Part shown: piece by piece, positions 41,085 through 62,861 of the stretch
Layout: the number at the start of each line of letters is the position of its first letter
Numbering within the stretch: the first letter of the stretch is position 1
NCBI GenBank assembly: GCA_965116475.1
Contig: OZ220691.1
Span: 672,001 to 736,000, forward strand
DNA from: Gemmatimonadota bacterium
Lineage (GTDB): Bacteria > Gemmatimonadota > Gemmatimonadetes > Palauibacterales > Palauibacteraceae
Direction: 5' to 3'
Length of the DNA stretch: 64,000 nt
Translations under genes and position numbers: made by a program
Notes under the pieces: model-generated
Databases searched by the model: none
Told to the model about the DNA's origin: nothing
What the model saw: the letters and a program-made list of their open reading frames with translations, nothing else

Positions 41085-42197
41085 TCAACCTGGCTTCTCC
41101 ACGCGCACGCTGAGCTTTGCGATGCGCCACGGCGGGAAACTGCTGTTCTGGAGAAGATAGAGATGCCTGCCACCCCCCAGGACCCTCGAGTCCTCCGGCA
41201 ACGGCACCTCCTCGTACAGCTTGCGGCCCGTGTGCCGGTCGTAGATGTCGAGGGATGAATGATACTCCCCGAAGGGTCCGCCGGACTCGGGGTAACCAAA
41301 ACGACCATGCACCACGACGAGATGGGAATCCACAACTGCGATGTGCGAGATGGTGCCGCGCCCTCCGAGCAGTTCTGGCATCTGCGTGGGGTATGCGCCC
41401 GGGTTGAAGGCACCCGGCTCGAACACGGGGATCGGATCGAACGTGGAGGGAGGAACGCCGATCTGGCCGATCGAGTCGCCTGCGGCGTTCAGAATCGTCA
41501 CCGGGTAGCGCAGGGAATACGCCATATAGATGGAGTCGCCCGCTACGTCGAATGAGAAGCGCACCAGCGACGCCCAGTACGGTCTCTCCACGGGAATGAA
41601 CGGGAAGGTATAGCCGCTCCACGCTATCTCGTCAGCTGCCAGCCGATGCAGCAGTCGAGGCTGCTGCACGAACCGTGACACACCCTGAGTCGCCTCCGTG
41701 AAGAGCTTGATCCCCACCAGCAGATCGGAACCGATTTGTTCAATCCCTGACGGGATACCGGGGAGTTGTACGATGGTATCCGGCACGAGGTTCGCCGTGA
41801 GGTAGGTGAGGCGCGGCCCGGAGCCCAACACGGCGACCCGCCCCCTTGCGGTCTCGGTCAAGCCGTTGATCCTCCGGAACTCGAACGGGCCGTCGCCGAA
41901 TCGACCAAAAGCCGCCTCGAGCCGCCCCTGTGCGTCGTAGCTGCGGACCCTGGGGAGCTGCCCCTCGCCAAGCAGGAAGCCACCATCGGCCCGCTCCTTA
42001 AAGATCCCCGGAGTCGCGATCGAATCCTGCGGATTCTCGCTGAGCGTGATAATGACTTCGGTCTCGAACGCCTCATCGAGCGCGGCCCGCAGTGGCGGCA
42101 ACGGGTCGGGCGCCCTCCCGCACGCCAGGAGGGGCAAGACGGCCGCGCACGCCATCGTGCGGAGCGCACCGGCTCGTTCGCGGGCGAGCGTAACCAC
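41085..42197 (-). CDS. 6-bladed beta-propeller lipoprotein
   Basis: LLAC lipobox, FGRFGDGPFEF, C-terminal FPPWRIAKL. Confidence 0.78.
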   Translation of the reverse strand: MVTLARERAGALRTMACAAVLPLLACGRAPDPLPPLRAALDEAFETEVIITLSENPQDSIATPGIFKERADGGFLLGEGQLPRVRSYDAQGRLEAAFGRFGDGPFEFRRINGLTETARGRVAVLGSGPRLTYLTANLVPDTIVQLPGIPSGIEQIGSDLLVGIKLFTEATQGVSRFVQQPRLLHRLAADEIAWSGYTFPFIPVERPYWASLVRFSFDVAGDSIYMAYSLRYPVTILNAAGDSIGQIGVPPSTFDPIPVFEPGAFNPGAYPTQMPELLGGRGTISHIAVVDSHLVVVHGRFGYPESGGPFGEYHSSLDIYDRHTGRKLYEEVPLPEDSRVLGGGRHLYLLQNSSFPPWRIAKLSVRVEKPG

Positions 42198-42200
42198 CGG

Positions 42201-42461
42201 CTATCGAACCACGATTTCCGGGATGCAGCACATCTCCAGCGCCGTGTAGCACGACCAGCCTCCGCATTGCCCGTCCCAGGGATCGCGGTGTTCCAGATCC
42301 ACGCACGGGCTGCCGAGTTCGTCCTCCCACTCCTCGACGCACGGATCCGTGCCCTCCTGCCCATCCAGCGCCGCCGGACCGACGGTTGTGGATGCGACGG
42401 CGAGTATGAAGGCCACCGCCAGCGCGGTGGCGATACGTGTGAACAGTGCGAACTTGTCCAT
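42201..42461 (-). CDS. Small secreted Cys-rich acidic peptide 2 (86 aa)
   Basis: AAGGAG RBS and signal peptide. Mature region has Cx11Cx12Cx4Cx6CC. Confidence 0.78.
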   Translation of the reverse strand: MDKFALFTRIATALAVAFILAVASTTVGPAALDGQEGTDPCVEEWEDELGSPCVDLEHRDPWDGQCGGWSCYTALEMCCIPEIVVR

Positions 42462-42473
42462 GTTGTCTGCTCC

Positions 42474-43076
42474 TTACGGATTCGAGGATTGGGTACGTAT
42501 GAGGCCCGTCGTGAGCGTCCCTCGTAGCGCGCCCACTTGGGCTTCGAAGCTCCAGCCGCAGTCCGAGGCGGCGGTCCTGGAATCGGCCAGCACCACGACT
42601 CCGGCACCGTCAACGAGAAGCTTCGTGTTAGGGAGAAGCGGACCGAACACAGCTTCCAGATCTTGTCGCGACGCTAAGGTGAACGTCGTGCCGCGAAGCG
42701 CCCGTCGCGCCTCATCGGGCACGTCATGATCACCGAACACCACGACATGGCGCTTCAGCAAAGGATCGTCCCCAAGAGCATTCCACACGGCGACCCTGGC
42801 ATTCAAGCAGGTCCGGCACCGCGCGAGATCGACGATCCAAAGCAGGTGAGCGTCCGCGGCGTCCGGTCTCTCGAGATCGAATGAAGACAGGGATACCGAG
42901 GTTCCGACCAGACGATCCCGGACGTTCGCCCGCTCGACCAGCGGGGTCGTCAACTGCAGCTTCGCCACAAGCTCGCGGTTGGATGAGGCCACGCTCCAAA
43001 CCAAGACCGCTCCGCCGAGTACCAGCCCGAATACGGCCAAGTCCAAGAGCGGTCTAAGGGACTTTCCTACCACCAC
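42474..43076 (-). CDS. Membrane-anchored thioredoxin-fold protein (CxxC)
   Basis: N-terminal TM, DLARCRTC, LPNTKLLVDGAGVV. Confidence 0.65.
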   Translation of the reverse strand: MVVGKSLRPLLDLAVFGLVLGGAVLVWSVASSNRELVAKLQLTTPLVERANVRDRLVGTSVSLSSFDLERPDAADAHLLWIVDLARCRTCLNARVAVWNALGDDPLLKRHVVVFGDHDVPDEARRALRGTTFTLASRQDLEAVFGPLLPNTKLLVDGAGVVVLADSRTAASDCGWSFEAQVGALRGTLTTGLIRTQSSNP

Positions 43077-44571: not shown

Positions 44572-45621
44572 TCAGCAGCTCCGGCGGGACACGTCGGCGT
44601 CGAGCCGCAGCGTCATCACGTAGTCGATGCCCAGGGGATCGGACGCCACGGCGTGGATGACGCCGGAGGGGCCGACCTCTGTTACCGCCACGGGATAGGG
44701 TACGGAGGCCGAACCGAGATACACGCCGCAGTGGTCCACCAGATCCCAGGTCGACCTATTGGGATCCGCCGCGCGTCTGGCCCAGATCCAGCCTTCGGGC
44801 GAGACATCCAGTTCCGCCGGATCCGGCTGCGGAATCTCGATGGTGCGGAGCGTATCGCCGGCGATGGTCAGTTCATGCAGCAGGGGTTCACCAGGGGGGG
44901 CCAGCCAAACCGTACCCTCCGGTGAAGCCGTCCAGGCGATCTGGGCACGCGTGGGCCTTATCATCGTGAGCGTAATTGTCCCGCGCGTGGACGCGCCCGC
45001 CGTTTCAACCGTGCGCCGCGTGCCGTCCGTGGCCATGGCACGCGCGTCGATTCTCAGTGTGTCGCCAGACAACGCATAGTCCTGCGTGATCCCGCCACGG
45101 GCCACGTAGCTGTACGTTGAGTCCCCGAAGACTCTGTACTGTTGTTCGTATACCCGGCCCTGTCTGTCGACGGCCATCACTACGGTGATCGGCTGAGTGG
45201 GGTTGCGGCGCAGGTCCGGCACCGTCGTGCTTCGCGCATGTTCCACGCCAAGCGAATCCAGGACCGACTGAAACACGCTATCGTCAATCCACAGCCGACC
45301 CCGACCCTCGTCCCAAGTCACGCGAGCGGGAAACTGGCGTCTGTGCCGCCGTTCGCCCGGCCCCTCGCCCTCGGGGGCAAGCCGACGAATGAACTCGCCG
45401 TCGCGGTCGAACAGGCGCACGTCCCTCCAGCCGGGATCGAGTACGTAGATGCGACCGGCTGAATCCACCGCGAGATCGTGGATGTCGCCGAACACATCGG
45501 GTCCCGACCCTTCGGCACGCCCGAGGCGCGACTCCTCGATCAGGTGGAATTCGCGAGTCTGGGCGGCAAGCGAGGACGCCGAAACCAGCAAGGCAAACGT
45601 GATGGCTGTCGCTGACTTCAC
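44572..45621 (-). CDS. Secreted 6-bladed beta-propeller protein
   Basis: GAGGAG RBS and GTG (MKSATA...), LAVDSAGRIYVLD, GEGPGE, DPLGIDYV. Confidence 0.8.
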   Translation of the reverse strand: MKSATAITFALLVSASSLAAQTREFHLIEESRLGRAEGSGPDVFGDIHDLAVDSAGRIYVLDPGWRDVRLFDRDGEFIRRLAPEGEGPGERRHRRQFPARVTWDEGRGRLWIDDSVFQSVLDSLGVEHARSTTVPDLRRNPTQPITVVMAVDRQGRVYEQQYRVFGDSTYSYVARGGITQDYALSGDTLRIDARAMATDGTRRTVETAGASTRGTITLTMIRPTRAQIAWTASPEGTVWLAPPGEPLLHELTIAGDTLRTIEIPQPDPAELDVSPEGWIWARRAADPNRSTWDLVDHCGVYLGSASVPYPVAVTEVGPSGVIHAVASDPLGIDYVMTLRLDADVSRRSC

Positions 45622-45669
45622 CGAACTCCTCTTCGGGGCAGGAATCTCGACCTGGAACGGCACGATAAG

Positions 45670-45749: not shown

Positions 45750-46769
45750 CTACTTGGTCCAGACGACAACCACGCCGCATCGCGAATCGGACCCGCCGAA
45801 TTCGGCCGGAAGCGACGCCGCCCCCCGGTACACCTCTACTCCGGCCACCTCGATGGGAAGCACCAAAGCGTCGAGGGAGGAACTCCCAACCTGGATGTTG
45901 TCCAGATACACAGCCATGGTGCAACCTGCACGAGCGTTGAACATCCCAGCCCGAACGCTGGGGAGTTCCTCTATCATATTCGAGATTCGCAGCGGTCTCC
46001 GACGCTCGATGTCCGCAGCCGTATAGAAGGTCCCGAGGCCGAGCAACTCTCCCCAGTGTTGCCGCTCGTAGAAGCCCTTGATCTCCAGACGTCGCGACCG
46101 CGTGGTCGACACCACCAGGGGCTCCAGTTCCATCGGCTCCCGCACAAGGCTGATCTCCAACTCCGTCGTGCGTCCGGTGGTCACGTCAACCGCGTGGCGA
46201 AGCGGCGCGTAGCCGAGCCGTCGAACCTGTAGCTCGTGCCGCCCCGCCGGCACGCCGGTCAGCCGGAACAAGCCCTGTCTGTCGCTTGCGACCTCCGTCG
46301 GCCGGCCGACGACGCTCACGGCCGCCGTCTCCACGGGACGCCCGGTCTCCGTGTCGACCAAGCGCCCGATCAGACGTCCCGACCGAACCGAACTCAGGAT
46401 CCGCAGGCGGACCTCTCGCTCCTCCCCGGCTACGATGCCCTCCGGCGCCGCCTGCCCGCTCGAATGATCCCCGAATTCCGCCCACACGACCGCCTGACTC
46501 GCGTCGCGCGGAACGCACAACCGAAGGCGGCCGTTGGCATCCGTCGCCTCTCGCACCGGCATTCGTTCCGCATCGGTCCAGCGAAGAACTACCGTGGCGC
46601 CGGGCAGTACGATACTCCCGGATTCGTCCAGCACGGTGACAAGAAGCGAGGCCGACTGACCGCAAGCCGCCTGCTGGGCCGCGGTCGGGGCCGAGTTGGC
46701 CAGCAAAGCGGCTGAAGCAATAATCCCACATGTACTTAGAGGTCGGCACCTGGACGACCAAAGATTCAT
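45750..46769 (-). CDS. Carboxypeptidase-regulatory-like + TonB-plug domain protein (no barrel)
   Basis: GGGAGG RBS, signal peptide, two CarboxypepD_reg-like domains, GFYER, C-terminal IEVAGVEVYRG...CGVVVVWTK. Confidence 0.8.
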   Translation of the reverse strand: MNLWSSRCRPLSTCGIIASAALLANSAPTAAQQAACGQSASLLVTVLDESGSIVLPGATVVLRWTDAERMPVREATDANGRLRLCVPRDASQAVVWAEFGDHSSGQAAPEGIVAGEEREVRLRILSSVRSGRLIGRLVDTETGRPVETAAVSVVGRPTEVASDRQGLFRLTGVPAGRHELQVRRLGYAPLRHAVDVTTGRTTELEISLVREPMELEPLVVSTTRSRRLEIKGFYERQHWGELLGLGTFYTAADIERRRPLRISNMIEELPSVRAGMFNARAGCTMAVYLDNIQVGSSSLDALVLPIEVAGVEVYRGAASLPAEFGGSDSRCGVVVVWTK

Positions 46770-46825
46770 GTCTTTCCTCCCGTACACCCGGCCAACTCCG
46801 TCTCGATTAGATGCGGCACGACAAC

Positions 46826-46856
46826 GTATGGACGTGGAGAGCGCCCGGCAGGTCAC
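46826..46856 (-). promoter_or_regulatory. Putative ECF promoter (copy B)
   Basis: GTGACC-N17-GTCCATAC. Confidence 0.7.
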
Positions 46857-48295: not shown

Positions 48296-48930
48296 CTACT
48301 TCGTCCAGATCACCACGGCACCGCAGCGAGCGTCGGAGCCGGCGAACTCGGCGGGGAGGGAGGCCGGTCCGTCATACACTTCGATGCCCGCGATCTCCAC
48401 CGGCAGGACCAGTTCGTCCAGCTGCCCGCTCGGCATTCTGATGCCATCAAGGTACACGTAGAGTTGGCAGCCTCCGGTCGAGAACCCCCCCGCCGACCTC
48501 CTCGTGCTTTCGAGTACGCAGCCACGGATGCCGCTTCCGCTGCAGCGCAGGCGCATTCCGGGGACATCGGCGATCATGCGCGTGATGCGGACGGGACGTC
48601 GGCGCTCGATATCATCGACCGTGAAGAAGGTGCCACCACCGGTCAGTTCGCCCCAGTGCCTGCGTTCGTAGAAGCCTCGGATCTCGAGATTGCGCGGCCT
48701 GATCACCGTCGCCACGATCGGCGGCAGCGCCATGGCGTCCGGCGAGAGGCCGAGTTCGACTTCCGTGGTGAACCCTTGTTGCACGGACACCGCGTGGGCG
48801 AGGGGTGCGTATCCGAGATGCCGCACCGACAGTTCGTGTTCGCCGACCGGGAGCCCGCTGAGGACGAACCGACCCCTCTGGTCCGTCTGTACAACCTGCG
48901 TCCGGCCGGACACGGAAATCGCAGCCGCGA
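48296..48930 (-). pseudogene. 5'-truncated plug-only protein
   Basis: Homology begins at AAISVSGR. Start, signal peptide and first domain are missing, and an inverted fragment lies at 48931-48965. Confidence 0.72.
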
Positions 48931-48974
48931 CCACCGTGCTCCGCTGGACGGACGCGGAGCGACGGCACGATACC

Positions 48975-49005
48975 GTATGGACATCGCGAGCGCTCGGAAG
49001 GTCAC
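48975..49005 (-). promoter_or_regulatory. Putative ECF promoter (copy C)
   Basis: GTGACC-N17-GTCCATAC. Confidence 0.7.
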
Positions 49006-49046
49006 GAAGGCGGCGGAGCGCGATGCCGTCTCGATGCGGTGGATCG

Positions 49047-50186
49047 CTATTTCGTCCAGACGACCACCGCGCCGCACCTTGCGTCGGAGCCGGCAAACTC
49101 GGCTGGGAGCTGCGCGGGGCCCTGGTAGACTTCCACTCCGGCCACTTCAACGGGCAGCACGAATTCGTCCACCGCACCGCCCCGCAGCAGGACGCCATCC
49201 ACGTAAGTGTTCATCGTGCAGCCTCCCGGAGAAAACCCCTGCGAGAATCGCGGATTCACCAGTTGACAGCTGTTGATCCCGCTGCCGCTGCACCGGAGTC
49301 GGATTCCGGGTGCGTCGGCAATCATGTGGCTGATGCGGAGTGGTCGTCGCCGATCAATGTCCTCTACCGTGAAGAACGTGCCACCGCTAACCAACTCGCC
49401 CCAAAACTTGCGCTCGTAGAACCCCACGATCTCCAGCCGTCGCGGTCGGATCACGGTTGCCACGAGCGGCTCCATCTCCAGAGGCTCTGCCGGCAGTGCG
49501 ATCTCGAGTTCCGTGGTGAGTCCTGACGTCACCGACAGCGGATGCAGAAGGCGCGCATACCCTATCCGGCGTATCTCCAAGTGCTGTTGGCCGGCAAGTA
49601 TACCGCTCAAGGCGAAGTGCCCTTGCCGATCGGTCTCGACAGCGGTGGCCCGGCCGACCAGTGACACGGCGACCGCGCTCAGCGGACGATTCGTCTGAGC
49701 GTCCACCACGCGCCCGACTACCCGGCCCGGCTCCACCGTACCAAAGAGCACCCGGAGTTCGACAGCGTGCGCGGCGGCGGGGTCCAACTGGACAACCGCT
49801 TGCTCGCTCGAATTGTCGCCAAGCTCGGCCCAGATCGTGGCGTGTCTGGCGTCCATGGGGACGCAGAGGAAGAGGCCCCCGTCCGCTCCCGCCGCTTCGC
49901 GCACCGGCCTACTTACGCCGTCCGTCCAGAGGAGAACCACGGTGGCCCCGGGTAGAGGGATCACACCGGACTGGTCGGTGACGGTTACCAGCAGGGAGGC
50001 CCGGTCGTCACACGTCTCGGGCTGCTGCGCCTCTGCCGCGACTGCACCGGACGCGAGTTGTACCGCAACCACGACCGCAACAACAATCGCAGGCATCCAT
50101 TCCGGCGGTCCCCAGTGCAGGCGACCGATACGAACGCGCCGATCTCGTCGAGGTCGGGTGTCAGGTGATTGCCGCTTGGAGGTCAC
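49047..50186 (-). CDS. Carboxypeptidase-regulatory-like + TonB-plug domain protein
   Basis: Full-length paralog ending CGAVVVWTK. Start is 50186 or 50096. Confidence 0.8.
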   Translation of the reverse strand: MTSKRQSPDTRPRRDRRVRIGRLHWGPPEWMPAIVVAVVVAVQLASGAVAAEAQQPETCDDRASLLVTVTDQSGVIPLPGATVVLLWTDGVSRPVREAAGADGGLFLCVPMDARHATIWAELGDNSSEQAVVQLDPAAAHAVELRVLFGTVEPGRVVGRVVDAQTNRPLSAVAVSLVGRATAVETDRQGHFALSGILAGQQHLEIRRIGYARLLHPLSVTSGLTTELEIALPAEPLEMEPLVATVIRPRRLEIVGFYERKFWGELVSGGTFFTVEDIDRRRPLRISHMIADAPGIRLRCSGSGINSCQLVNPRFSQGFSPGGCTMNTYVDGVLLRGGAVDEFVLPVEVAGVEVYQGPAQLPAEFAGSDARCGAVVVWTK

Positions 50187-51469
50187 TTCGGATTGTGCCC
50201 CGTTTCACCGGGAGACCGCGGGCCGGCTGCGCCTGCGCCGCGGCGAGAGGGATCGCGGCGGCGCGGTCCGCTTGCTTCGGATAAATCTCTTCGAACAATC
50301 CATCCGGCGGCTTCGGCGTCGGGAGGCCCCGTAAACTCGAGCACCTCTCCGCTCGTGGTAAGCGGAACGGCAACCGGCCAGACGGTAGTCCCGATACCAG
50401 CCTCGACCAGCAGCCGGTGAAGAAGGACCGGTGAGCGGATTTCCCACTTGCGGACGAACCAGCGATCCGCCGCAAGCTGTTCGAAATCAAACCGGCCGCC
50501 GAATTGGGACTCCTTGATCTCGGTTCGGCGAAAACTGATGCGGCGATACCGGGATGACAGTTCCGCCCGCAACGACGGCTCCAAGTGCCGTCGCAGAAAC
50601 GGACGCAAGGAAGTGTACTGGAACTCCAGTTCCTCCGGTCCTCCATCGACTCTGTTGATCCACAGCACGCCCTCGACATCAACAACTCGCCGATTCGGCT
50701 TCGGTTCGAACCCCAGTCCGAGCCTCCGTTCATTCTCGCTCGCGACCGGCCGCAGGCAATGCGTCGCCAAGAAGCCGGGTGACGCCAGCGCGCTTTCGTC
50801 CGGGGCGTAGAACGTCGTCAGAGAATCGCCGATCACTTCCGCGTATCCGTACACCTCAAGGTGATTCGGTGAAGCGTTGTCGAAGTACCGCTCCACGACG
50901 ACAGTTGCCGTGTCCTGGGCGTAGTGGCGTCCGCCGCGCTTCCACACGACGGTTGGCCGTATGGTCCGCATCCGCAGTGACCCAAGATCCGTGGAGGCAA
51001 TCGAGGTGAGGATCGGGAGGATCGACTCGTAGAGCGCGAAGGCCTGGGTCCGTTCTTGACGGGTCGTTGGACAGTCGTTTTGCGCCGACGCCGACAACTC
51101 CGGAAGCGGAATCGGTTTGATCGGGACACGTAGGAGTATCGTTCGTGACTCCGATATCGACGCGATATGGAGGGTATCCGATGCCCAGGACTGATAGCCG
51201 ATGCGCGTTACCCGGACGCGATAAACGCCCGGTGGGGGAACCGGCAGGCTGAACGCCCCCCGTCCGTTCGAGAGCGTCTCGCCTGAGACAGCATCCTCCG
51301 AGTTGATCAATGCGACCACTGCGCCTTCAACTGGCAGGCCCTCGCCCTCCGCGACGAGAAACCCACTCAGGCGCGTACCTGCATCCTGAGCTGCGAGGAA
51401 AGACGCAGCCAGCATGAACCCGGCGCTCGTCGCCAGAACTGCACTCCCGAAGGCGCTTCGACGCCTCAT
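50183..51469 (-). CDS. Carboxypeptidase-regulatory-like domain protein; 3' end fused to an anti-sigma remnant
   Basis: ATGA overlap at 51469, signal peptide, GRGAFSL...RIGYQ, FYAPD...FLATHC...GLGFEP...DVEGVLW. Confidence 0.7.
   Translation of the reverse strand: MRRRSAFGSAVLATSAGFMLAASFLAAQDAGTRLSGFLVAEGEGLPVEGAVVALINSEDAVSGETLSNGRGAFSLPVPPPGVYRVRVTRIGYQSWASDTLHIASISESRTILLRVPIKPIPLPELSASAQNDCPTTRQERTQAFALYESILPILTSIASTDLGSLRMRTIRPTVVWKRGGRHYAQDTATVVVERYFDNASPNHLEVYGYAEVIGDSLTTFYAPDESALASPGFLATHCLRPVASENERRLGLGFEPKPNRRVVDVEGVLWINRVDGGPEELEFQYTSLRPFLRRHLEPSLRAELSSRYRRISFRRTEIKESQFGGRFDFEQLAADRWFVRKWEIRSPVLLHRLLVEAGIGTTVWPVAVPLTTSGEVLEFTGPPDAEAAGWIVRRDLSEASGPRRRDPSRRGAGAAGPRSPGETGHNPK
50223..50323 (-). 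pseudogene. Fragment of a second anti-sigma gene
   Basis: Aligns without gaps to 59283-59383 (PPDGLFEEIYPK in both). Confidence 0.8.
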
Positions 51470-54052: not shown

Positions 54053-54365
54053 TCAGCAACTTCGGCGGGACACGTCGGCCTCGAGCCGCAGCGTCATCAC
54101 GTAGTCGATGCCCAGGGGATCGGACGCCACGGCGTGGATGACGCCGGAGGGGCCGACCTCCGTTACCGCCACGGGGTAGGGTACGGAGGCCGAAAGGTCG
54201 AACAGGCGCACGTCCTTCCAGCCGGGGTCGAGTACGTAGATTCGACCGGCTGAATCCACCGCGAGATCGTGGATGTCACCGAACACATCGGGTCCCGACC
54301 CCTCGGCACGCCCGAGGCGTGACTCCTCGACGAGTTGAAACTCGCCGGCCTGGGCGGCAAGCGAA
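54053..54365 (-). pseudogene. Internally deleted duplicate of propeller 44572..45621
   Basis: Near-identical DNA at both ends. The middle is lost (RLFD|LSASVPY), and so are the RBS and start codon. Confidence 0.85.
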
Positions 54366-54377
54366 CGGCACGATAAG

Positions 54378-54408
54378 GTATGGACTCTGCCGACGCTCGG
54401 AAGGTCAC
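54378..54408 (-). promoter_or_regulatory. Putative ECF promoter (copy D)
   Basis: GTGACC-N17-GTCCATAC, a duplicate of copy A. Confidence 0.7.
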
Positions 54409-54457
54409 GAGGTTGGCGTGCGGCCAAGGCCGGACCTCTCTCGGCAGCGACGTCAGG

Positions 54458-55081
54458 CTACTTGGTCCAGACGACAACCACGCCGCATTGCGAATCGGAC
54501 CCGCCGAACTCGGCCGGTAGGGATGCCGCCCCCTTGTAGACCTGTAGCTCGTGCCGCCCCGCCGGCACGCCGGTCAGCCGGAAAAAGCCCTGCCTGTCGC
54601 TTCCGGCCTCCGTCGGCCGGCCGACGACGCTTACAGCCGCCGTCGGCACGGGACGACCGGTCTCCGTGTCGACCACGCGTCCGATCAGACGTCCCGACCG
54701 CACCGAACTCAGGATGCGCAGGCGGACCTCTCGCTCCTCCCCGGCTACGATGCCCTCCGGCGCCGCCTGTCCGCTCGAATGATCCCCGAATTCCGCCCAC
54801 ACGACCGCCTCACTCGCGTCGCGCGGAACGCAAACCCGAAGACGGCCATCTGCATCCGTCGCCTCCCGCACCGGCATGCGTTCCGCATCGGTCCAGCGAA
54901 GAACCACCGTGGCCCCAGGCAACGCGATGCTCCCGTACTCGTCCAGCACGGTGACGAGAAGCGAGGCCCTGTCACCGCAGTCTCCCTCCTGTCCGGCCGC
55001 CGCTTCGAAGCTCACTCCGATCAGCGTGATGAGGGTGACCACCCGCGCCACCCAGTACTGTTTCAGGTCAGGCATGTGCAT
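54458..55081 (-). pseudogene. Internally deleted duplicate of plug-only protein 45750..46769
   Basis: In-frame junction RHELQV|YKGAASLPAEF removes most of the plug domain. Confidence 0.8.
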
Positions 55082-55290: not shown

Positions 55291-56589
55291 TCAACTCGGC
55301 AGCCCTCGACATTCGCGACCGGGTGCAGCGGCACCGTCGTTTCGTTCGAAGACGCTCACATAGGATTCGCCAAACGTTCCTACCGACGTGGTGAGAACGG
55401 ACGAGCGGGTTGCGTGCAGGAAGCGATGACCCTCCGGAAGCTCCATCACGCGCGACGTTCCCTCCTGCGGCCGGACTGCGACCCACGACCTCGACCCCTC
55501 CTCGTCCCCGGCTTCCAGTTGCAACCACAGCTCGCCGGGAACCCCGCTCCTGATGCTCCGTACCGGAAGCAGGACATCCCGCGCGGGTACAGCCAGTGCT
55601 CTTTCCCGCAGTGTTTCAGACACCTGCGACAACAGTGGTGTGGTCGACTGCAGATAGTCGTACCGCTCGCTCCTCCTCCGTCGCTCCTTCTCTTCGATCC
55701 CGGCTGGCACCGGTGCGCCCTCCAGACCCAGGTGGATCCGCGTCGCTACCGTCCCATCTCCTCGCATACCGACTACAGATGCCTCAGCTGTGTCGACGAG
55801 ATACAGAAGGTCGTCGTTCACCGTACCCAAGGTCGTCGCGCCGAACAGAACGCGCCCCGGTTGGATGCGGTCGCCGAGGTCCACGGAGTACATCTCGGCA
55901 CCGGGCACGTGGGCAAGAAGCGACCAGTCACCTTGCGGGCTTCGGCGCAGGTACCGAATCGGCCTTCGCCAGATACCTCGGCGCTGGCGGTCCGAGAGCC
56001 GTCCCATTTGGGTCTGCGAAGCAACCACCGACCCGTCCTCCAGGAGCCCCAGGCCCAGCGGGGGTGGCGGATCGAGAGAGTGAAGCGTCCTGCTTTCCAG
56101 AAGCTCACCGCCCGGCGACAGCTCGGACATGCGCTGCAGCAGCACGTCCCACACCCAGATCGTCCCGTCGCCGCGCAAACCCATATGGGTTGCCTGTCGA
56201 AACTCACCGGGCCCTTCGCCATCTCTTCCGACGACTCTGATCTGTCGCCCATCCGGTCCGTAGATCAATAGTTCGGTCCACCCGGACAGCACAGCGAACC
56301 GCCCGGATTCCAGGAGCAGCCCGGCCTGAACGCTTCGCATGGGCTCACCGGTATCGTCATCGAGCCCGCCGACCGTGAGGACATGTGTCACGCCGATCCT
56401 CGGAAGGTTGCTCGCCGGTCGCGGGTCGTTGTACGTCCAGACGCCCTCGGCGTCCACCGAGCACTCACCGGACAGATCCGAGTATTGGTCCGACGCAGGC
56501 GCATCGCTGGAACACGCAGCAGCACCAATCGCCGCACACAGGGTTGGGACCAAAACGGAGGACGAGAAACTCTTCTTGCGCCGTGCCAT
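55291..56589 (-). CDS. 6-bladed beta-propeller lipoprotein
   Basis: AAAC lipobox, VGRDGEGPGEF, GTIWVWD, C-terminal GTFGESYV. Confidence 0.8.
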   Translation of the reverse strand: MARRKKSFSSSVLVPTLCAAIGAAACSSDAPASDQYSDLSGECSVDAEGVWTYNDPRPASNLPRIGVTHVLTVGGLDDDTGEPMRSVQAGLLLESGRFAVLSGWTELLIYGPDGRQIRVVGRDGEGPGEFRQATHMGLRGDGTIWVWDVLLQRMSELSPGGELLESRTLHSLDPPPPLGLGLLEDGSVVASQTQMGRLSDRQRRGIWRRPIRYLRRSPQGDWSLLAHVPGAEMYSVDLGDRIQPGRVLFGATTLGTVNDDLLYLVDTAEASVVGMRGDGTVATRIHLGLEGAPVPAGIEEKERRRRSERYDYLQSTTPLLSQVSETLRERALAVPARDVLLPVRSIRSGVPGELWLQLEAGDEEGSRSWVAVRPQEGTSRVMELPEGHRFLHATRSSVLTTSVGTFGESYVSVFERNDGAAAPGRECRGLPS

Positions 56590-56596
56590 GAGCTGA

Positions 56597-57154
56597 TCAC
56601 CAGGGGTGAGAGGCTGGATCGTTGCGTCGGTGAGCATAGCCTGAACCGATGCGACCCTCCGTGATCCATCCGCCGGCGAACCACGTTCCGTCCGAAGCGC
56701 GCACGAGCGCTCCGGCGATCGGACCGTTCAGCGGGACGGTTTCGGGGTTCACTTCCGCCCCGGCTTCGATCTCCGGCAGGGACAACCGCGTGAGGCGCTG
56801 ATGGATGCCATCGAGGATCCAGACCTCGTCGGGCGATTCCGCAGCCCCGATGACGACCTGCTCCGGATCCTTGAACTCGCCCGGGCCGTCGCCCTGGCGG
56901 CCGTAGGAACCGAGGCGCCCCGGCGTCTCGAGATCGACGACGTGAACCGACGGCTCCAGCAGCGCGTCCAGCGCCACCACGCGGTCCCCAGCCAACGCGA
57001 TCTCAACGATCCAGCCGAGCGAGTCGTCCGCGAAGACGGCGTCCGGCGTCAACTCGGCCGGGCTGCCGGCATCGACCGTGGCCGGTTCCGCCTGACGACA
57101 GGCGCCGACCGCCAGAACCGCGACGGCCGACAGCCCGATCGCTGACCGCCTCAT
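56597..57154 (-). pseudogene. Truncated TolB/BF3164-like propeller lipoprotein
   Basis: VGAC lipobox, YGRQGDGPGEF. Only about 185 aa, with a non-propeller-like tail. Confidence 0.65.
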
Positions 57155-57164
57155 CGCGACTCCA

Positions 57165-57371
57165 CTAGGGCTCAACACAGCGCGGCAGCCGGTTTCGCTC
57201 CTGCATGTCCGGGCAGATGCAGTCCACCTTGGATATGCTGCCGCACCCCTCTTCCGTACACGACGCGGCGGAGAGCCTGAGACCGACGGGGGCATCCGCA
57301 TCTGCGGTGACCGGAACAGCCGCCACGATTACCGCGAACGCTGCCGTGGCCAAGAAACGCTTGAAGCTCAT
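57165..57371 (-). CDS. Small secreted Cys-rich peptide 3 (68 aa)
   Basis: GGAGG RBS, MSFKRFLATAAFAVIVAAVPVTADA signal. Mature region has Cx4Cx7CxCx11C. Confidence 0.78.
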   Translation of the reverse strand: MSFKRFLATAAFAVIVAAVPVTADADAPVGLRLSAASCTEEGCGSISKVDCICPDMQERNRLPRCVEP

Positions 57372-59547
57372 CGTGTCCCTCCAGGTTCGAGTGTTGCCGG
57401 CTATCTGACCGGCGCCGGGAATCCCCCAGCAGAAGTGCAATACGTAGCGCGGGTGCGAGAGCCTCCCCGCGATATCGCAGAGTGCCGCCGCCGTCCACGA
57501 CGAAGAACTGCACCTCCCGCCAGGCGCGCAGGGCTTCCCAGACTTCGGAATGCCTGTCATACAGGAACGGGGGCATCTCCGGAGTGCCGTTCTCGGCGGC
57601 GGTCCGATCCTCGCTCCCGGAATCGGGATTGACGGTGACCAGCAACGCTCGCGCACCCGCGGCCGCCAGTTTCGATTCATTAGCCCTGAGTAGATCCAGA
57701 CTCTCCTCGGGGACGTAGCCCGGTCGAAGGGTCTGGATGATCAGCGTCACGTCGCCGCCGGTCACCTCGTGCAACGTCCTCTCTTCTCCAGAGGCAGTCT
57801 CGAGCCGGGCGCTTCCGTTGACCCACTCATCGAGCAGTGACGATGCCAGGTGCTCTCGCCATGCCGCGCGGGCTACGGCGCGAAGGGCTTCCGTCGGTGC
57901 GGTCGCCCAGTCTTCTCCCTCGGGCACGTAGGGCGCGAGCGGGATGACGGGGTCCGCCTGCGCGAGCGCCAGCAACTGGGCGGCGCGCGTCGATGACCCG
58001 GCCTCCGCGTGGAACCTCGCCAACTCCACGAACAAACGGGGATCCCAACTGAGTTCGCCGGCGCGCTCGAAGGCATCGAGCGCCCCCGCCCGGTCCCCGC
58101 GGTCCACCCGCAGCCGGCCGAGCAGCACGTGCAGGCGGGCCACACTCTCGGCAACCTCCGCCTCGAAGTTGGCTCGCGTGCCCGTCAGCGGCCGATCCGT
58201 GCCCAGCCAGTCCGGCTGCCCACTCAACTGCCGCAGGATCCACTCCTCGGCGATCGCCCCAAGAGCGGGCACCTCGGCCATGCGTTCCGTCACTTCGACA
58301 TCGAGCCGGGAATCTCGAAACACGGGATTCGCGGCGTACCTCTCAAGCCAGATTCCGGTAAGGGCAGGATCGGCCACCTCTTGGGCGAGCTGCAGCCCGA
58401 CCTGGGCCGCCGAGGGCATCGGCGCGAGCCTCCAGCTCCGGTCCAGCGCGTCCAGCTTTTCCGTGTGCGACGTTGACGACAGAAGGATCGACTCCAGCCG
58501 CACCTGCGACGCGTATTCGTGCCGTGGATGTTCGGCGGCGAGTTCGCTCCGCCAATAGGCCTCGATCTCCTCCCGGCCGAGGAGGCGGGCGTAGAGGCTC
58601 AGGGCGTACATTTCGCCCGGTTCGGAGTCTCCCTGCCGCGCCGTCGCGTCCATCCGCTCAAGACGCCGTAGATGCGCGTTCCGCGGGGTCTCTCCCGGGC
58701 CCCCGGGAGCCGCCCCCTCCTCGTACAGGAGGAGAGATGTCCATAGCTCGGGGCGCTCGGGGTACTCCGACAACCCGCGCTCGATCGTCTCAACGACCCG
58801 CCGGGGGTTCAAGCGCGAGGTGGCCAGCACCTGGTACAGGCGGGCGTCGAGCGTCGCTCGGCCCTCCGCGTCCGTCTCGAGGTACTCCCACGACCGGCCG
58901 AAATCGCTGTCAATGTAGTTTCCGTCCAGATCTTCGACGGCCGCGGCCGCGTACACGGTGCCGGGGGGCAGAGCGACCGTTCCGGAGAACACGCCGGGTT
59001 CCTCCCGGGAGAGTTCGACCACGCGGTATCCGGGTTCAGTCTGGGCGAAGCGGAGCGGGTCGGGCACCCAATAACGCAGCCGCGCCCGGAGGCCGGGCTC
59101 CACCGCCAGCGGCGAGACCGTCTCGTACTGGAGCGTGAGTGCGCCCGGTTCCTCACCGTGGAATCGCAGAGTGCTCGCACCGGCCATGGCCCGCTCGGGT
59201 CCAAGCGTCAACACGAGGACTGCCGCGATCCCTGCCACCACGAGGGCCCCTGCCGAGACGGCCAAGGGTCGGGAGGACGCAACCGGCTGCATCTGCGAAA
59301 CCACCAAAGGGATCGTGGCGGTATTGCCCGCTTTCTTCGGGTAAATCTCTTCGAACAATCCATCCGGTGGCTTCAGCGTGGGAACGGCGCGGAGTGCCGC
59401 ACTCAACTCGCGAATGAGCCGGACCTCGCGCCGGCAGACCGCACACGAACGAACGTGTAGCCGCACGGCAGTGGCCGACGGTTCGGGCAGCACCCGGTCC
59501 GCGTAGCGGTTCAGTGTCTGATCGTCGATCTGTGTGCAGGATTCCAT
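57172..59547 (-). CDS. Large zf-HC2 anti-sigma factor with TM, repeat-like and thioredoxin-like domains
   Basis: HVRSCAVC (HxxxCxxC), one TM, TPR-like helices, C-terminal AhpC/TSA-like PFLYD...FFVVDGGGTLRYRG. Directly after the ECF gene. Confidence 0.8.
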   Translation of the reverse strand: MESCTQIDDQTLNRYADRVLPEPSATAVRLHVRSCAVCRREVRLIRELSAALRAVPTLKPPDGLFEEIYPKKAGNTATIPLVVSQMQPVASSRPLAVSAGALVVAGIAAVLVLTLGPERAMAGASTLRFHGEEPGALTLQYETVSPLAVEPGLRARLRYWVPDPLRFAQTEPGYRVVELSREEPGVFSGTVALPPGTVYAAAAVEDLDGNYIDSDFGRSWEYLETDAEGRATLDARLYQVLATSRLNPRRVVETIERGLSEYPERPELWTSLLLYEEGAAPGGPGETPRNAHLRRLERMDATARQGDSEPGEMYALSLYARLLGREEIEAYWRSELAAEHPRHEYASQVRLESILLSSTSHTEKLDALDRSWRLAPMPSAAQVGLQLAQEVADPALTGIWLERYAANPVFRDSRLDVEVTERMAEVPALGAIAEEWILRQLSGQPDWLGTDRPLTGTRANFEAEVAESVARLHVLLGRLRVDRGDRAGALDAFERAGELSWDPRLFVELARFHAEAGSSTRAAQLLALAQADPVIPLAPYVPEGEDWATAPTEALRAVARAAWREHLASSLLDEWVNGSARLETASGEERTLHEVTGGDVTLIIQTLRPGYVPEESLDLLRANESKLAAAGARALLVTVNPDSGSEDRTAAENGTPEMPPFLYDRHSEVWEALRAWREVQFFVVDGGGTLRYRGEALAPALRIALLLGDSRRRSDSRQHSNLEGHDELQAFLGHGSVRGNRGGCSGHRRCGCPRRSQALRRVVYGRGVRQHIQGGLHLPGHAGAKPAAALC

Positions 59548-59558
59548 CGTACAGCTCC

Positions 59559-60092
59559 CTACTGCTCGAACAGCTCGGCGCGAAGCAGCTTCCGCGCCTT
59601 GTGCAACCGCGACTCCGAGGTCGAGCGCGAGATCTGGAGAAGCTCGGCGATCTCCTCGTGCGACCACCCCTCGATCTCCTTGAGAACGACAACGGTCCGC
59701 AGTTCCTCCGTCAGCGAAGACAGCGCTCGCTCCACTGCGATCGAGTTCAAGACGGGGATTTCCGGCGACGTGACGACCTCCCCTCCATCGGGCGCCGCCG
59801 CCATCGCAGTCTCGTCTCGTCGCCGCTCCGACCGGACGTGTCGGAGGGCGACGCGAGCCGTCACGGAACGAAGCCAGGGGCCCAGCGACCGCTTGCCATC
59901 GAAGCGCCGAAGCATCTCGGGAAGGTCGCCAAAGACATCGTGTAGTACATCCCGAGCATCGGCAGACGACTCCGTCAAACGATACGCCACAGCGAACAAC
60001 GGCTTCGCGTACTCCTCGTACAAGGACTGCAACGCACGGCGATCGCCGCGCGCCGCCCTACGCGACAATCGCCTCTCCCGGGCCGCGGTCAT
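59559..60092 (-). CDS. ECF RNA polymerase sigma factor
   Basis: GDRRALQSLY, DARDVLHDVF, WL, region 4 VVVLKEIEGWSHEEIAELL...SRLHKAR. An in-frame extension to about 60254 is possible. Confidence 0.93.
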   Translation of the reverse strand: MTAARERRLSRRAARGDRRALQSLYEEYAKPLFAVAYRLTESSADARDVLHDVFGDLPEMLRRFDGKRSLGPWLRSVTARVALRHVRSERRRDETAMAAAPDGGEVVTSPEIPVLNSIAVERALSSLTEELRTVVVLKEIEGWSHEEIAELLQISRSTSESRLHKARKLLRAELFEQ

Positions 60093-60678
60093 CAAACCGC
60101 GCGACCTCCCGCAACCAGGCGTGCCTTCTTGACTCTCTCCACGGAGAATCTCTTTCTCGTCGTCGGGCCCCTGCGCCGGAGCCGATGCTCCCGGCGTGGA
60201 TCCTCCCTCTACAGTTAATTGCCCGCCCGAGGGCAAAACTTGCATCGCGTCCATCCGGCGTTTTTCGACGAAGATGGCCCTATGCGAAGGTTTTGCAATC
60301 GATAAGTATAGCGATGGCAACACGATAGGAGTGTGGAGGCTTCGGAAACAGTCATCGGAAATTGGACGGCGCTCGCTGCCGTTGGCACCTTGGCGACGCC
60401 GTCCTCGACCCGACGTGTCGGCAGCGTTCACCACCTGCCGGTGGGGCGACACGCGGCGGCCTGCCCCGAGCTACCGGGACAGGCCGTTCGTACGCTTCGA
60501 GTGGCTCCGCAGCGAGCTGTCTTGCGTGCGCGTCTAGCCGAGACGGATCACGCCGCGGCCGGGGTCGGGTCGCATGTTTTTCTCCTTTGAGGCATGTCGT
60601 TCGTCACCGAGAGCGCGCCAGAAAACGGCGCTCCCGATAACACAAACGCCTCCGGATCGAAAAACCTTACATCACGCC

Positions 60679-61716
60679 CTACTTCGTCCAGATCACGATG
60701 GCGCCGCAGCGTGTGTCGGAGCCGCCGAACTCGGCCGGAAGCGATGCCGGGCCCTTGTATACCTCGACTCCCGCGACCTCCACCGGAAGGACGAGAGTGT
60801 GGAGGGCGACGTTGCTCACATCGACGCTGTCGAGGAATGTCTTGATGTTGCAGCCGGCGCCTGAGAACCCGGCCGACAGTCTCGTGCTGTAGAACCTCCC
60901 GTCCCGTCCCAACCGGATTCCCGACATATCGGCGATCATGTGGCTGATGCGCTGCGGCCGCCGACGCTCGATGTCGGCGGCGGTGAAGAACGTGCCTCCG
61001 CTCACGAGTTCGCCCCACAGCTTCCGCTCGTAGAACCCCTTGATCTCCAGGCGGCGGGATCTCGTCACGGTCGCGACGAGCGGCTCCATTTCGACCGGCG
61101 TGGGCACCAGCCCGATCTCCACTTCCGTGGTGAGCCCGCGCGTCACCGTCACGGCGTGGCCAAGCGGGGCGTAGCCGATGTGTCTCACTTCCAGTTCGTG
61201 CTGCCCTTCGGGGACGGCGGACAGAACGAAGGCGCCGCGCCGGTTGCTTTGGGCCTGCCGGCCCCGACCCCGGACGGATACGGCGGCCGTGGCCACGGCA
61301 TCGCCGGTCACGCCATCGTATACCCGGCCGATGATCCGCCCCGCACGGACCGTCCCGATGAGGACCCGGAGTTCCACCTCGCGTACCTCCCCGGGTTCGA
61401 AGACGACGACCGCCTGCTCGCTCGACCCGTCCCCCAACTCGGCCCACAGCGTCGCCTCCTGCGCGTCACGAGGGACGCAGAGGAAGAAGCGGCCCTGGGG
61501 ATCGGCGGCTTCGCGCACTGGCCGCCGCCTCGCCCCGTTCCAGCGGAGCACCACGGTGGCCCCCGGCAGGGCGACCGTCCCGGATTCGTCCAGGACCGCG
61601 ACGCGAAGCGAAGCCCGGTCGCCGCATTCATCCCCGTCCTGCCCGACCGCCGGAGTCACGGCGACCCCCAGCAGCGACACCACCGCGATCGTCATCGTCC
61701 GTATCACTCGCGTCAT
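60679..61716 (-). CDS. Carboxypeptidase-regulatory-like + TonB-plug domain protein
   Basis: Signal peptide and the same architecture, ending CGAIVIWTK. Confidence 0.82.
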   Translation of the reverse strand: MTRVIRTMTIAVVSLLGVAVTPAVGQDGDECGDRASLRVAVLDESGTVALPGATVVLRWNGARRRPVREAADPQGRFFLCVPRDAQEATLWAELGDGSSEQAVVVFEPGEVREVELRVLIGTVRAGRIIGRVYDGVTGDAVATAAVSVRGRGRQAQSNRRGAFVLSAVPEGQHELEVRHIGYAPLGHAVTVTRGLTTEVEIGLVPTPVEMEPLVATVTRSRRLEIKGFYERKLWGELVSGGTFFTAADIERRRPQRISHMIADMSGIRLGRDGRFYSTRLSAGFSGAGCNIKTFLDSVDVSNVALHTLVLPVEVAGVEVYKGPASLPAEFGGSDTRCGAIVIWTK

Positions 61717-61745
61717 CTCCAGTGCATGGGCAAGGCGCTCCCCGT

Positions 61746-62861
61746 CTACTTCGTCCACACCACGACGGCGCCGCAGCGCGCGTCGGACCCGCCGAACTCC
61801 GCCGGGAGCGTGGCCGGCCCCTTGTACACTTCGACGCCGACGATCTCGAACCCCCGCAGGTTCCACCCGTCACGCCACTCGACCCCATCGACGAAAACCT
61901 TCACGCTGCACGTCAGGTTCAAGAAACCCGCGCTCATGCGCCGATTCCTCGGCGACCGCCAGGTGATCCCGGGGACGTTGTTTGCCACAAGGGAGCGGAC
62001 GTCCCTGGGTCGCCACCGCTCGATGTACTCGGGTGAGAAGAAGTAGCCGTTGCCGGTCAGCTCGCCCCAGTACTTCCGTTCGTAGAACCCCTTGATCTCG
62101 AGCCGGCGCAGTCTCGCCACGGTCGCCACGATCGGCTCCATCTCCACGGGCGTCGGCACGAGGCCGATGTCCACCTCCGTCGTGACGCCCGGCGTTACGT
62201 CGATCCGATGGCGGAGCGGGGCGTAGCCGATGCGTCGCACCTCCAGGTGACGCACGCCGGGCCGCACGTCGCTGAGGATGAACCTGCCCTGTCGGTTGCT
62301 CGCAGCTTCCGGCGCGTGACCGGTCACGGATACCGCCGCCGTGGCCACGGGGTTTTCCGTCAGCGCATCGTACACGCGGCCGATGAGGCGCCCCCGGCGA
62401 ACTTCGGACAGGAGCACCCGGAGTTCGACCTCCCGCACCTCTCCGGGCGCGAGGGCCACGGTCGCCTGTTCGCTCGAATCGTCGCCCAGTTCCGCCCACA
62501 GCACCGCTTCTTTCGCCTCCTCAGGGGCGCAGAGCAGGAAGCGCCCCTCCGGCCCGGCCGTTTCTCGCAGCGGCATCTCCTCGACGTCGGACCAGTGGAC
62601 CACGAGCATGGCGCCGGGGATCGGGATGTTGCCCGACTCGTCGACGACCGTCACCTGAAGGGAAGGCCGGTCCCGGCAACCGTCGTCCTGCCCCAGGACC
62701 GGGCCGGTCGACGCCGCGAGGAGGAGGGAGAAGAAGAAGAAGAGGGAGATGATGCGGCAGGTTCGCCGCGGGCGGCGTGGTTCGTAACGGGGAACTCCGG
62801 GTTCGTTGCCCAAGGCCGTTCCTTTCGCTCTGTCCCGCGCGGGTGCGCCCGGGCAGGACAC
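61746..62861 (-). CDS. Carboxypeptidase-regulatory-like + TonB-plug domain protein
   Basis: Same architecture, ending CGAVVVWTK. Confidence 0.82.
   Translation of the reverse strand: MSCPGAPARDRAKGTALGNEPGVPRYEPRRPRRTCRIISLFFFFSLLLAASTGPVLGQDDGCRDRPSLQVTVVDESGNIPIPGAMLVVHWSDVEEMPLRETAGPEGRFLLCAPEEAKEAVLWAELGDDSSEQATVALAPGEVREVELRVLLSEVRRGRLIGRVYDALTENPVATAAVSVTGHAPEAASNRQGRFILSDVRPGVRHLEVRRIGYAPLRHRIDVTPGVTTEVDIGLVPTPVEMEPIVATVARLRRLEIKGFYERKYWGELTGNGYFFSPEYIERWRPRDVRSLVANNVPGITWRSPRNRRMSAGFLNLTCSVKVFVDGVEWRDGWNLRGFEIVGVEVYKGPATLPAEFGGSDARCGAVVVWTK

Follow-up and report, generated by a model that had tools for sequence, protein, structure and literature searches.

In this work we analyzed a 64,000-nt stretch of contig OZ220691.1 (hereafter the window) from the single-contig, 3.62-Mb genome of a sponge-associated Gemmatimonadota bacterium (assembly GCA_965116475.1). 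The window contains a four-gene envelope-signaling cassette whose tightly packed genes lie on the minus strand in the order extracytoplasmic function (ECF) sigma factor, anti-sigma factor, 68-aa Cys peptide, and propeller genes. We give an even chance to the view that this cassette is a dedicated, probably autoregulated ECF/anti-sigma operon providing periplasmic feedback on the production or folding of the peptide-propeller pair. It is based on the conserved linkage of the sensor genes to this pair and on the architecture of the anti-sigma factor, which ends in a thioredoxin-like domain free of cysteine. The genes are as follows (ORF, open reading frame).

59559..60092, minus strand: ECF sigma factor, 177 aa (Pfam Sigma70_r2 and Sigma70_r4_2; NCBIfam TIGR02937)
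57401..59547, minus strand: anti-sigma factor, 716 aa with 4 nt from read-derived contigs counted; the ORF as printed reaches 57172 (57172-59547) and has 791 aa
57165..57371, minus strand: exported peptide, 68 aa; Sec-type signal peptide, then about 43 residues with five Cys
56597..57154, minus strand: TolB-like six-blade propeller-family lipoprotein, about 185 aa here; its end is missing in comparison with relatives
55291..56589, minus strand: second propeller-like lipoprotein paralogue; ORF with a lipoprotein-like N-terminus, adjoining the first propeller gene

Architecture of the sigma and anti-sigma factors

The product of 59559-60092 scored 46.5 bits with Sigma70_r2, 61.2 bits with Sigma70_r4_2, and 87.5 bits with TIGR02937 (cut-off, 42.9). 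The features expected of ECF group 4 were all found: sigma-2 and sigma-4 regions, a length of 177 aa (expected, ~170-200), and an anti-sigma gene directly downstream, which begins at 59547 after a gap of 11 nt behind the ECF stop codon. An earlier inspection, the sequence-only reading, had described an ECF sigma factor followed by an anti-sigma factor of about 790 aa with a zf-HC2 motif (HVRSCAVC), one transmembrane helix, a long helical or tetratricopeptide repeat (TPR)-like extracytoplasmic region, and an AhpC/TSA-like C-terminus without CxxC. The sigma factor and all of these domain assignments were borne out, and the length had to be corrected. The anti-sigma factor is organized as follows (AF2, AlphaFold2).

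59368..59547, minus strand: cytoplasmic anti-sigma domain, zf-HC2 with HxxxCxxC, about residues 1-60 (Pfam zf-HC2)
59200..59265, minus strand: single transmembrane helix, about residues 95-116 (one Kyte-Doolittle segment above 1.6)
58864..59196, minus strand: extracytoplasmic beta-sandwich, about residues 118-228 (AF2 model); best-conserved part of the family
57958..58851, minus strand: TPR superhelix, about residues 233-530 (AF2 model and Foldseek)
57415..57882, minus strand: TlpA/AhpC-TSA-like thioredoxin-fold domain without CxxC or cis-proline, about residues 556-711
57418..57420, no strand: site in the assembly lacking 4 nt that both read-derived contig sets carry

The N-terminus scored 24.1 bits with Pfam zf-HC2 (cut-off, 22.2), and its motif HVRSCAVC, corresponding to H31-x3-C35-x2-C38, was invariant in 18 of 18 aligned homologues. 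When the family profile was compared with PDB, the N-terminal part matched ChrR (E = 1.4e-3), DdvA (2.9e-3), and RsiW (0.013). By these matches the protein is a member of the class I or ZAS (zf-HC2) anti-sigma factors, for which zinc and sigma binding are predicted. The hydropathy scan gave exactly one hydrophobic segment. As C4, C35, and C38 are the only cysteines within the first 711 residues, the whole extracytoplasmic part is free of cysteine.

Two pieces of the ectodomain, residues 118-560 and 556-725, were folded by AF2, each with a 65-sequence alignment. The first piece (predicted local distance difference test score [pLDDT], 88.9) showed the beta-sandwich, whose conserved stretches RARLRYWVP and LPPGTVYA also served as search patterns, and then 16 helices (residues 116-413 of the segment). 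Foldseek matched this model to consensus TPR proteins (CTPR), TPR subunits of the APC/C, and the TPR domain of OGT, and Pfam TPR_14 reached 20.4 bits with the anti-sigma factor, which is under the cut-off of 23.5. The helical region proposed earlier is thus present as a TPR superhelix, preceded by a beta-sandwich.

The second piece (pLDDT, 87.6) showed a thioredoxin-like fold, and its best Foldseek matches were Bradyrhizobium TlpA (4txo, 4txv, 1jfu), peroxiredoxins, and CcmG, with a probability of 1.00, E values of ~1e-6, and TM scores of ~0.6. The comparison of the family profile with PDB, which uses the sequence alone, led to the Thermus thioredoxin-like protein 2cvb (E = 5.7e-4). No Pfam redoxin match at E <= 0.01 was obtained for the window anti-sigma factor itself. 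Distant full-length homologues exceeded the Pfam AhpC-TSA/Redoxin cut-off of 26 bits (P0104, 57.8; P0126, 48.9; P0134, 36.8), and family members gave weak NCBIfam matches to ResA, StoA, and TlpA. Since distant full-length members reach the AhpC-TSA/Redoxin cut-offs, some of them with CAPC, CPPC, or CVSC at the active site, these matches indicate that the C-terminal domain is homologous to genuine redoxins. In the window protein, which has no cysteine after residue 38, the CxxC position reads LRPGYVPEE. In addition, the cis-proline is lost: its position is taken by Q680, which is invariant in the near family, whereas many distant members retain GTPxYFVLD.

The active site was compared in 76 aligned rows, of which 45 had no Cys, 24 had one Cys (typically FWSRYCxPS or FWSRxCGPA), and 7 had C..C. 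Six of the latter were canonical (CAPC twice, CPPC, CVSC, CNRC, and CVTC once each). With the thioredoxin-like domain left out, the tree required at least 14 changes of the active-site state; it is unrooted, and the order of events lies outside its reach. The loss of Cys is old and stable in the starred clade that contains the window (100* support); all 14 rows of this clade are Cys-less. The enzyme form probably came first, as we infer from the fold's origin rather than from the tree. Among near orthologues the median ratio of nonsynonymous to synonymous substitution rates (dN/dS) of the thioredoxin-like domain was 0.33 (21 pairs), compared to 0.17 for the beta-sandwich, the lowest value, 0.26 for the TPR region, and 0.40 for the cytoplasmic domain. 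The ratio obtained for the thioredoxin-like domain indicates that it is under purifying selection and not decaying in spite of being Cys-less.

The length of about 790 aa was caused by an assembly error. Homologues of the anti-sigma factor mostly have 700-735 aa, and in a DNA alignment with six orthologous loci the window showed a 4-nt gap right after the conserved ...LLGD, which puts the ancestral stop codon out of frame. The 4 letters absent at 57418/57420 are present in the Logan contigs of two public runs, X1 (depth 4.45) as well as X2 (depth 50.8), and between 56600 and 60700 this insertion is their sole difference from the window; the two runs come from two studies, and X1 may be the source run of the assembly. 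With the 4 nt restored, the ORF has 716 aa and ends with TAG at 57401-57403, 29 nt before the ATG of the peptide gene. The codon-position GC signal (GC at third codon positions, GC3) likewise leaves the anti-sigma frame near 57400 and moves to the peptide frame. A 75-aa tail overlapping the peptide gene (residues 717-791 of the printed ORF) was ruled out by the GC signal, the orthologue alignment, and the read contigs. The earlier remark that the protein is unusually long with about 790 aa thus goes back to the assembly error; with 716 aa it is nevertheless long for a zf-HC2 anti-sigma factor. Similar indel errors may be present elsewhere in the single-contig genome, where they could give rise to false long ORFs or frameshifts.

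Linkage of the sensor genes to the peptide and propeller genes

In a scan in which each species was represented by one genome, 25 near copies of the cassette were found in 21 loci, all from Candidatus Palauibacter or other Gemmatimonadota and with up to three tandem copies per contig; these loci were annotated by tblastn with seven window proteins. All 25 copies have the ECF gene directly upstream of the anti-sigma gene, and 19 of them have an intact peptide gene and propeller gene downstream. Among the exceptions, L018 has only the signal-peptide part, followed by an unrelated ORF and the end of the locus, and L021 has only the C-terminal part of the propeller. Behind copy 1 of L016 and copy A of L020 lie a CarboxypepD_reg fragment and then the next cassette, and L007 and L019 have other genes downstream. 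In nine regions from more distant genomes of the phylum, in which anti-sigma identity was 27-33%, the order ECF gene, anti-sigma gene, small ORF with signal peptide, and propeller gene was found six times. Four of the six peptides had a three-Cys core, that of L028 had five Cys, and that of L025 had the three-Cys core and a fourth Cys. Of the other three regions, L030 has a selD-like gene instead, one ends at the contig end, and one is a weak match.

In several metagenome loci, too, the anti-sigma gene is linked to the peptide gene. Of the two outcomes that would have contradicted the sequence-only reading, a lack of linkage between homologous anti-sigma genes and peptide genes and a C-terminus unlike thioredoxin, neither was observed. 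In seven metagenome loci (L063, L075, L076, L082, L087, L098, L108) the propeller gene is convergent with the anti-sigma gene, and in the inverted loci with enough sequence (L087, L098, L108) an ORF for a five-Cys peptide with a signal sequence again precedes it. No peptide was seen in the metagenome locus L052. Because the linkage survives both deep divergence and inversion of the pair, it argues for a sensor system that is functionally tied to the peptide-propeller pair. The gene neighborhood varies with the form of the active site. This site could be aligned in 62 of the 80 metagenome loci, which were distributed as follows; many loci are short, and absences are therefore weak evidence.

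Cys-less: 11 loci; propeller match in 10; selD-like gene downstream in 0
CxxC: 5 loci; propeller match in 3; selD-like gene downstream in 0
Single Cys: 46 loci; propeller match in 2; selD-like gene downstream in 20

In the single-Cys subfamily (FWSRxCGPS), the selD-like gene (ACKLGPAEL...DFFTPIVDD) directly follows the anti-sigma gene in the 20 loci L037-L040, L045, L053-L055, L057, L059-L062, L065, L068-L072, and L080, in addition to the genome locus L030. No selenocysteine codon was seen at the active site. The idea of selenocysteine there was rejected, as flags reading "1 TGA" proved to be terminal stops and no internal stop was present in 10 copies checked.

For the wider family, an exhaustive profile search gave 369 representative clusters at E <= 1e-30, mostly full-length with 700-750 aa. 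Of 401 genomes sampled across the phylum, with two candidates scored per genome, 26 had a match at E <= 1e-20, and in the family of the window, its own genome excluded, 20 of 29 genomes were matched.

The peptide and propeller genes lie directly behind the anti-sigma gene (57165-57371, then the propellers), as had been noted from the sequence. By inspection, the peptide starts with a Sec-type signal composed of KR, a hydrophobic run, and TADA. In 30 aligned peptides C38, C43, C51, C53, and C65 were invariant, as were P20, D50, and P63, and the median dN/dS over 28 pairs was 0.22 across the gene and 0.15 in its mature part. This pattern of substitutions indicates that the peptide is encoded by a real gene under purifying selection. 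It is called hypothetical protein in 18 protein clusters, often on contigs that also carry anti-sigma homologues. Searches of Pfam and NCBIfam gave no match for the peptide, ESM Atlas scores did not exceed 0.79, and no second copy was found in the window by tblastn.

The propeller gene at 56597-57154 begins with a lipoprotein signal and has about 350-430 codons in relatives. The propellers of the L003 and L025 cassettes matched PF15869 (TolB-like six-blade) with 53.1 and 54.5 bits (cut-off, 29.2), whereas the truncated window propeller gave no Pfam match. It aligned with 88% identity to residues 1-237 of the 410-codon ORF of L003 and then stopped, and the read contigs concur with the window across this region. 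The second propeller-like lipoprotein (55291-56589) likewise had no Pfam match. In the ORFs listed, the propeller has no Cys beyond the lipobox, so that the cysteines of the peptide are not needed to tether it. Among 14 neighboring ORFs scanned with Pfam and NCBIfam, no exporter, maturase, or leader peptidase was found next to the peptide; the neighbors of the cassette are propellers and CarboxypepD_reg proteins.

Two further elements were identified upstream of the ECF gene.

60645..60671, minus strand: candidate ECF-type autoregulatory promoter TGTAAGGTTT-N13-GCGTT (regular-expression scans)
60534..60575, minus strand: 13-codon micro-ORF MRPDPGRGVIRLG with a strong AAGGAG Shine-Dalgarno sequence, between the candidate promoter and the ECF gene

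The motif TGTAAGGTTT-N13-GCGTT had one strict match in the 3.62-Mb genome and none in a reversed-genome control. Of 30 related loci, 18 carry it on the same strand at a distance of 76-819 nt before the ECF gene. The -35-like 10-mer was found in 23 of the 80 metagenome loci, without exception 52-394 nt ahead of the ECF start, with one extra copy on the minus strand. The motif resembles the ECF promoter consensus, with an AAC-like -35 and a CGT-like -10 element. Its distribution suggests autoregulation and a regulon confined to the operon. A scan for sigma-70 promoters and terminators gave nothing above shuffled controls. The micro-ORF MRPDPGRGVIRLG is conserved: it occurs once in the genome, and the related loci, 861,672 nt in total, contain it at 13 places (12 unique), each time on the strand of the cassette and in some cases downstream of a cassette. 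The leader around it (60380-60660) is strongly structured (z = -3.4) and has no match to an Rfam family. Together, micro-ORF and leader may constitute a leader peptide or an attenuator.

The genome of the window holds one full copy of the cassette and one 45-residue anti-sigma remnant (profile positions 53-96, ...PTPKPPDGLFEEIYPK...). The remnant, located at about 50200-50340 on the minus strand at the end of a CarboxypepD_reg gene and without a sigma gene, is probably a recombination scar. Both are situated in an island (42-62 kb) with a G+C content of 0.62-0.67, compared to about 0.70 in the rest of the window, and with many duplicated or truncated propeller genes. One of these, a 124-aa ORF at 54053-54427 (minus strand), consists of an N-terminal and a C-terminal part of the 363-aa propeller paralogue at 44572-45663 (minus strand) fused together and is therefore an internally deleted copy. 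The minus-strand ORFs at 45750-46856, 48296-49198, 49047-50186, 54458-55081, 60679-61866, and 61746-62861 are tandem paralogues, which have about 300-395 aa except for one fragment of 207 aa. Those scanned with Pfam showed a CarboxypepD_reg domain, to which the two full-length ones among them add a sub-threshold part resembling the TonB Plug; all paralogues share the C-terminus ...GGSD(A/S)RCG(A/V)VV(V/I)WTK and have no barrel. Such paralogues also lie upstream of the cassette in many relatives (L001-L003, L011, L012, L015, and L018).

A second three-gene module, which lacks a sigma factor, is located at 41088-43076 (minus strand) and encodes a 200-aa membrane-anchored protein with a CRTC motif (42477-43076), a small exported peptide with six Cys (42204-42473), and a propeller-like protein of 370 aa. 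For the CRTC protein, the Atlas pointed to a cluster named thioredoxin-domain protein (0.92), for which Pfam gave no support. Compared with the anti-sigma factor it gave no significant BLASTP match, hhalign with A4 returned a probability of 0.47%, and phmmer against PDB found nothing relevant. The triad of thioredoxin-like protein, Cys peptide, and propeller may be a recurring unit.

A possible periplasmic feedback loop and its alternatives

From the sequence alone it had been suggested that the extracytoplasmic part could bind the secreted Cys-rich peptide or sense its folding state in an autoinduction-like loop, an interpretation that our results support in part. In the mechanism that we propose, the catalytically dead thioredoxin-like domain, probably acting with the groove of the TPR region, would be a binding module and not an enzyme, and in the periplasm it would monitor either the peptide encoded alongside or the complex of peptide and propeller. 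Occupancy by the partner, or its absence, would set the stability of the anti-sigma factor via regulated proteolysis, in the manner of other single-pass anti-sigma factors. Once freed, the sigma factor would transcribe its own operon from the single TGTAAGGTTT-N13-GCGTT promoter, which would result in a periplasmic feedback loop on the making or folding of the peptide-propeller pair. Relatives that have CxxC or one Cys may make this contact covalently, via a mixed disulfide. A more specific form of this mechanism, which we consider rather unlikely, is a quality-control circuit for one client. Here the TlpA-derived domain would capture the odd fifth Cys or the unfolded small subunit of a propeller lipoprotein complex, covalently (mixed disulfide) in CxxC and single-Cys members and non-covalently in the Cys-less Palauibacter clade, and release of the sigma factor would report unassembled peptide.

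Distance matrices were compared for 15 cassettes. As a positive control, the known contact between the ECF sigma factor and the cytoplasmic anti-sigma domain gave r = 0.90, which lends indirect support to the predicted sigma binding. The propeller correlated best with the TPR region (0.87), followed by the beta-sandwich (0.80) and the thioredoxin-like domain (0.77), and the mature peptide gave 0.64 with the TPR region, 0.64 with the propeller, 0.60 with the thioredoxin-like domain, and 0.46 with the ECF sigma factor. The matrices thus fell into two blocks, one formed by the ECF sigma factor and the cytoplasmic domain and the other by the propeller, the mature peptide, and the distal periplasmic domains. 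This pattern is weakly suggestive of a contact of peptide or propeller with the ectodomain.

Several observations weigh against the proposed feedback loop. The pattern of distances just described is equally expected from recombination inside the anti-sigma gene, because its TPR and thioredoxin-like parts adjoin the peptide and propeller genes. In the genome of the window, the propeller gene that belongs to the cassette is truncated, and in the inverted loci no promoter motif was found upstream of the peptide gene. Six of the 25 near copies are without an intact peptide-propeller pair, and most of the wider family, namely the single-Cys subfamily, has no propeller, from which it follows that the sensor can work without the pair. 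Finally, the beta-sandwich, and not the thioredoxin-like domain, is the most conserved and most constrained part of the ectodomain (dN/dS, 0.17). The last three points also favor an explanation that we regard as possible, albeit somewhat improbable, in which peptide and propeller are outputs only. They would form the regulon, and the anti-sigma factor would sense an unrelated envelope or host signal via beta-sandwich and TPR region, with the Cys-less domain as a cap or docking site. Neighbors conserved beside ECF genes are commonly regulon members, which agrees with this explanation. It accounts less well for the persistence of the linkage through deep divergence and inversion, for the retention of a thioredoxin-like domain under purifying selection without catalytic residues, and for propeller and peptide distances that track the distal periplasmic domains more than the ECF sigma factor, a trend confounded by linkage.

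The propeller lipoprotein rather than the peptide might be the partner of the anti-sigma factor, as a co-sensor like RseB or CseA, with the peptide as its small subunit or cargo. The propeller's correlations with the ectodomain, again confounded by linkage, are in line with this idea, as are the observations that peptide and propeller always travel together and that the peptide cysteines are not required for tethering. We nevertheless judge it unlikely, since in the genome of the window the propeller is truncated while anti-sigma factor and peptide are intact. Lower still is the probability of a released autoinducer, in which the peptide would leave the cell and be read by the anti-sigma factor as a quorum-type signal. 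The peptide is small, exported, conserved, and encoded in the operon of a putative sensor, and a genome may contain several paralogous cassettes whose peptides have diverged. However, autoinduction via a released peptide looks less likely than periplasmic feedback, because the 14 neighboring ORFs scanned include no outer-membrane exporter, peptidase, or maturase. Moreover, a lipoprotein as obligate partner points to a complex in the periplasm or at the outer membrane, and we know of no ECF system that works by a released peptide autoinducer. Finally, the cassette of the window might be a decaying relic in a recombining island that has lost signaling, as the truncated propeller gene, the anti-sigma remnant, the internally deleted propeller copy, and the lower G+C content could imply. 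We consider this improbable, as what looks like a frameshift in the anti-sigma gene results from an assembly error, the sigma, anti-sigma, and peptide genes are intact and their orthologues under purifying selection, and a second propeller paralogue follows directly downstream.

Relation to known systems and significance

The closest working models for the cassette are sigma-E/RseA/RseB with regard to the co-encoded partner, the ZAS proteins with regard to the cytoplasmic domain, and TlpA/ResA/CcmG with regard to the fold. In Escherichia coli, sigma-E is held by the single-pass anti-sigma factor RseA, the periplasmic partner RseB is encoded in the same operon, the system is autoregulated, and the sigma factor is released by regulated proteolysis. 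The cassette resembles this system in the pairing of an ECF sigma factor with a single-pass anti-sigma factor and in having a gene for a candidate periplasmic partner in the operon. It differs in that this candidate is a five-Cys peptide and/or a propeller lipoprotein and that proteolysis is here only proposed; moreover, RseA has a short periplasmic domain and neither zf-HC2 nor a TPR or thioredoxin fold. The N-terminal HxxxCxxC domain is shared with the ZAS proteins ChrR, RsrA, RsiW, and DdvA (PDB 2q1z, 8rlz, 5wuq), but these have cupin, short, or other C-termini, and none of those matched has an ectodomain of beta-sandwich, TPR, and redoxin fold. RsrA senses the redox state via its cytoplasmic zinc site and not via a periplasmic thioredoxin fold.

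The C-terminal domain has the same fold as TlpA, ResA, CcmG, StoA, and the AhpC-TSA peroxiredoxins (4txo, 1jfu; TM score, ~0.6), but unlike these it lacks CxxC and cis-proline, stays under the Pfam cut-offs, and forms one protein with an anti-sigma factor. A Cys-less thioredoxin fold is also seen in the b' domain of protein disulfide isomerase, which binds peptides and unfolded proteins non-covalently, and it may serve, by fold only, as a working analogy for a Cys-less sensor. In the methylamine dehydrogenase system MauD-MauA-MauB, a membrane-anchored TlpA-like protein, a Cys-rich exported small subunit, and a beta-propeller are encoded together, and the small subunit needs the thioredoxin-like protein for maturation. 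In contrast to Mau, the thioredoxin-like part is here fused to the anti-sigma factor and catalytically dead, and there is no quinone-cofactor context; neither the peptide nor the propellers matched a Mau family in Pfam at E <= 0.01.

In the full-text literature we found no description of an anti-sigma factor with a thioredoxin- or TlpA-like ectodomain or of the function of PF15869 propellers, and no printed description of the pairing of such a cassette with a five-Cys peptide and a propeller lipoprotein. The passages of PMC10469786 and PMC7406223 that matched our search terms contain nothing on this anti-sigma architecture or on propeller function.

ECF/anti-sigma pairs are a major route of bacterial signaling, and for most groups the sensed signal is unknown. 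The family described here is worth study, as its sensor has a recognizable TlpA/AhpC redoxin ancestry with a gradient from CxxC via single-Cys to Cys-less forms, the genes for two small conserved candidate partners lie next to that of the sensor, and the promoter motif is apparently private to the operon. Taken together, these features provide a compact, testable model for a periplasmic thiol enzyme turned into a ligand-sensing pseudo-enzyme. The private pair of sigma factor and promoter could also be used as an orthogonal expression part. The cassette gives a first context to an unannotated family of five-Cys peptides and to a family of TolB-like propeller lipoproteins that are abundant in sponge-associated and marine Gemmatimonadota. 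If the quality-control circuit were true, the signal of this ECF system would be the folding state of a product of its own operon, and the family would represent a natural series from enzyme to pseudo-enzyme sensor.

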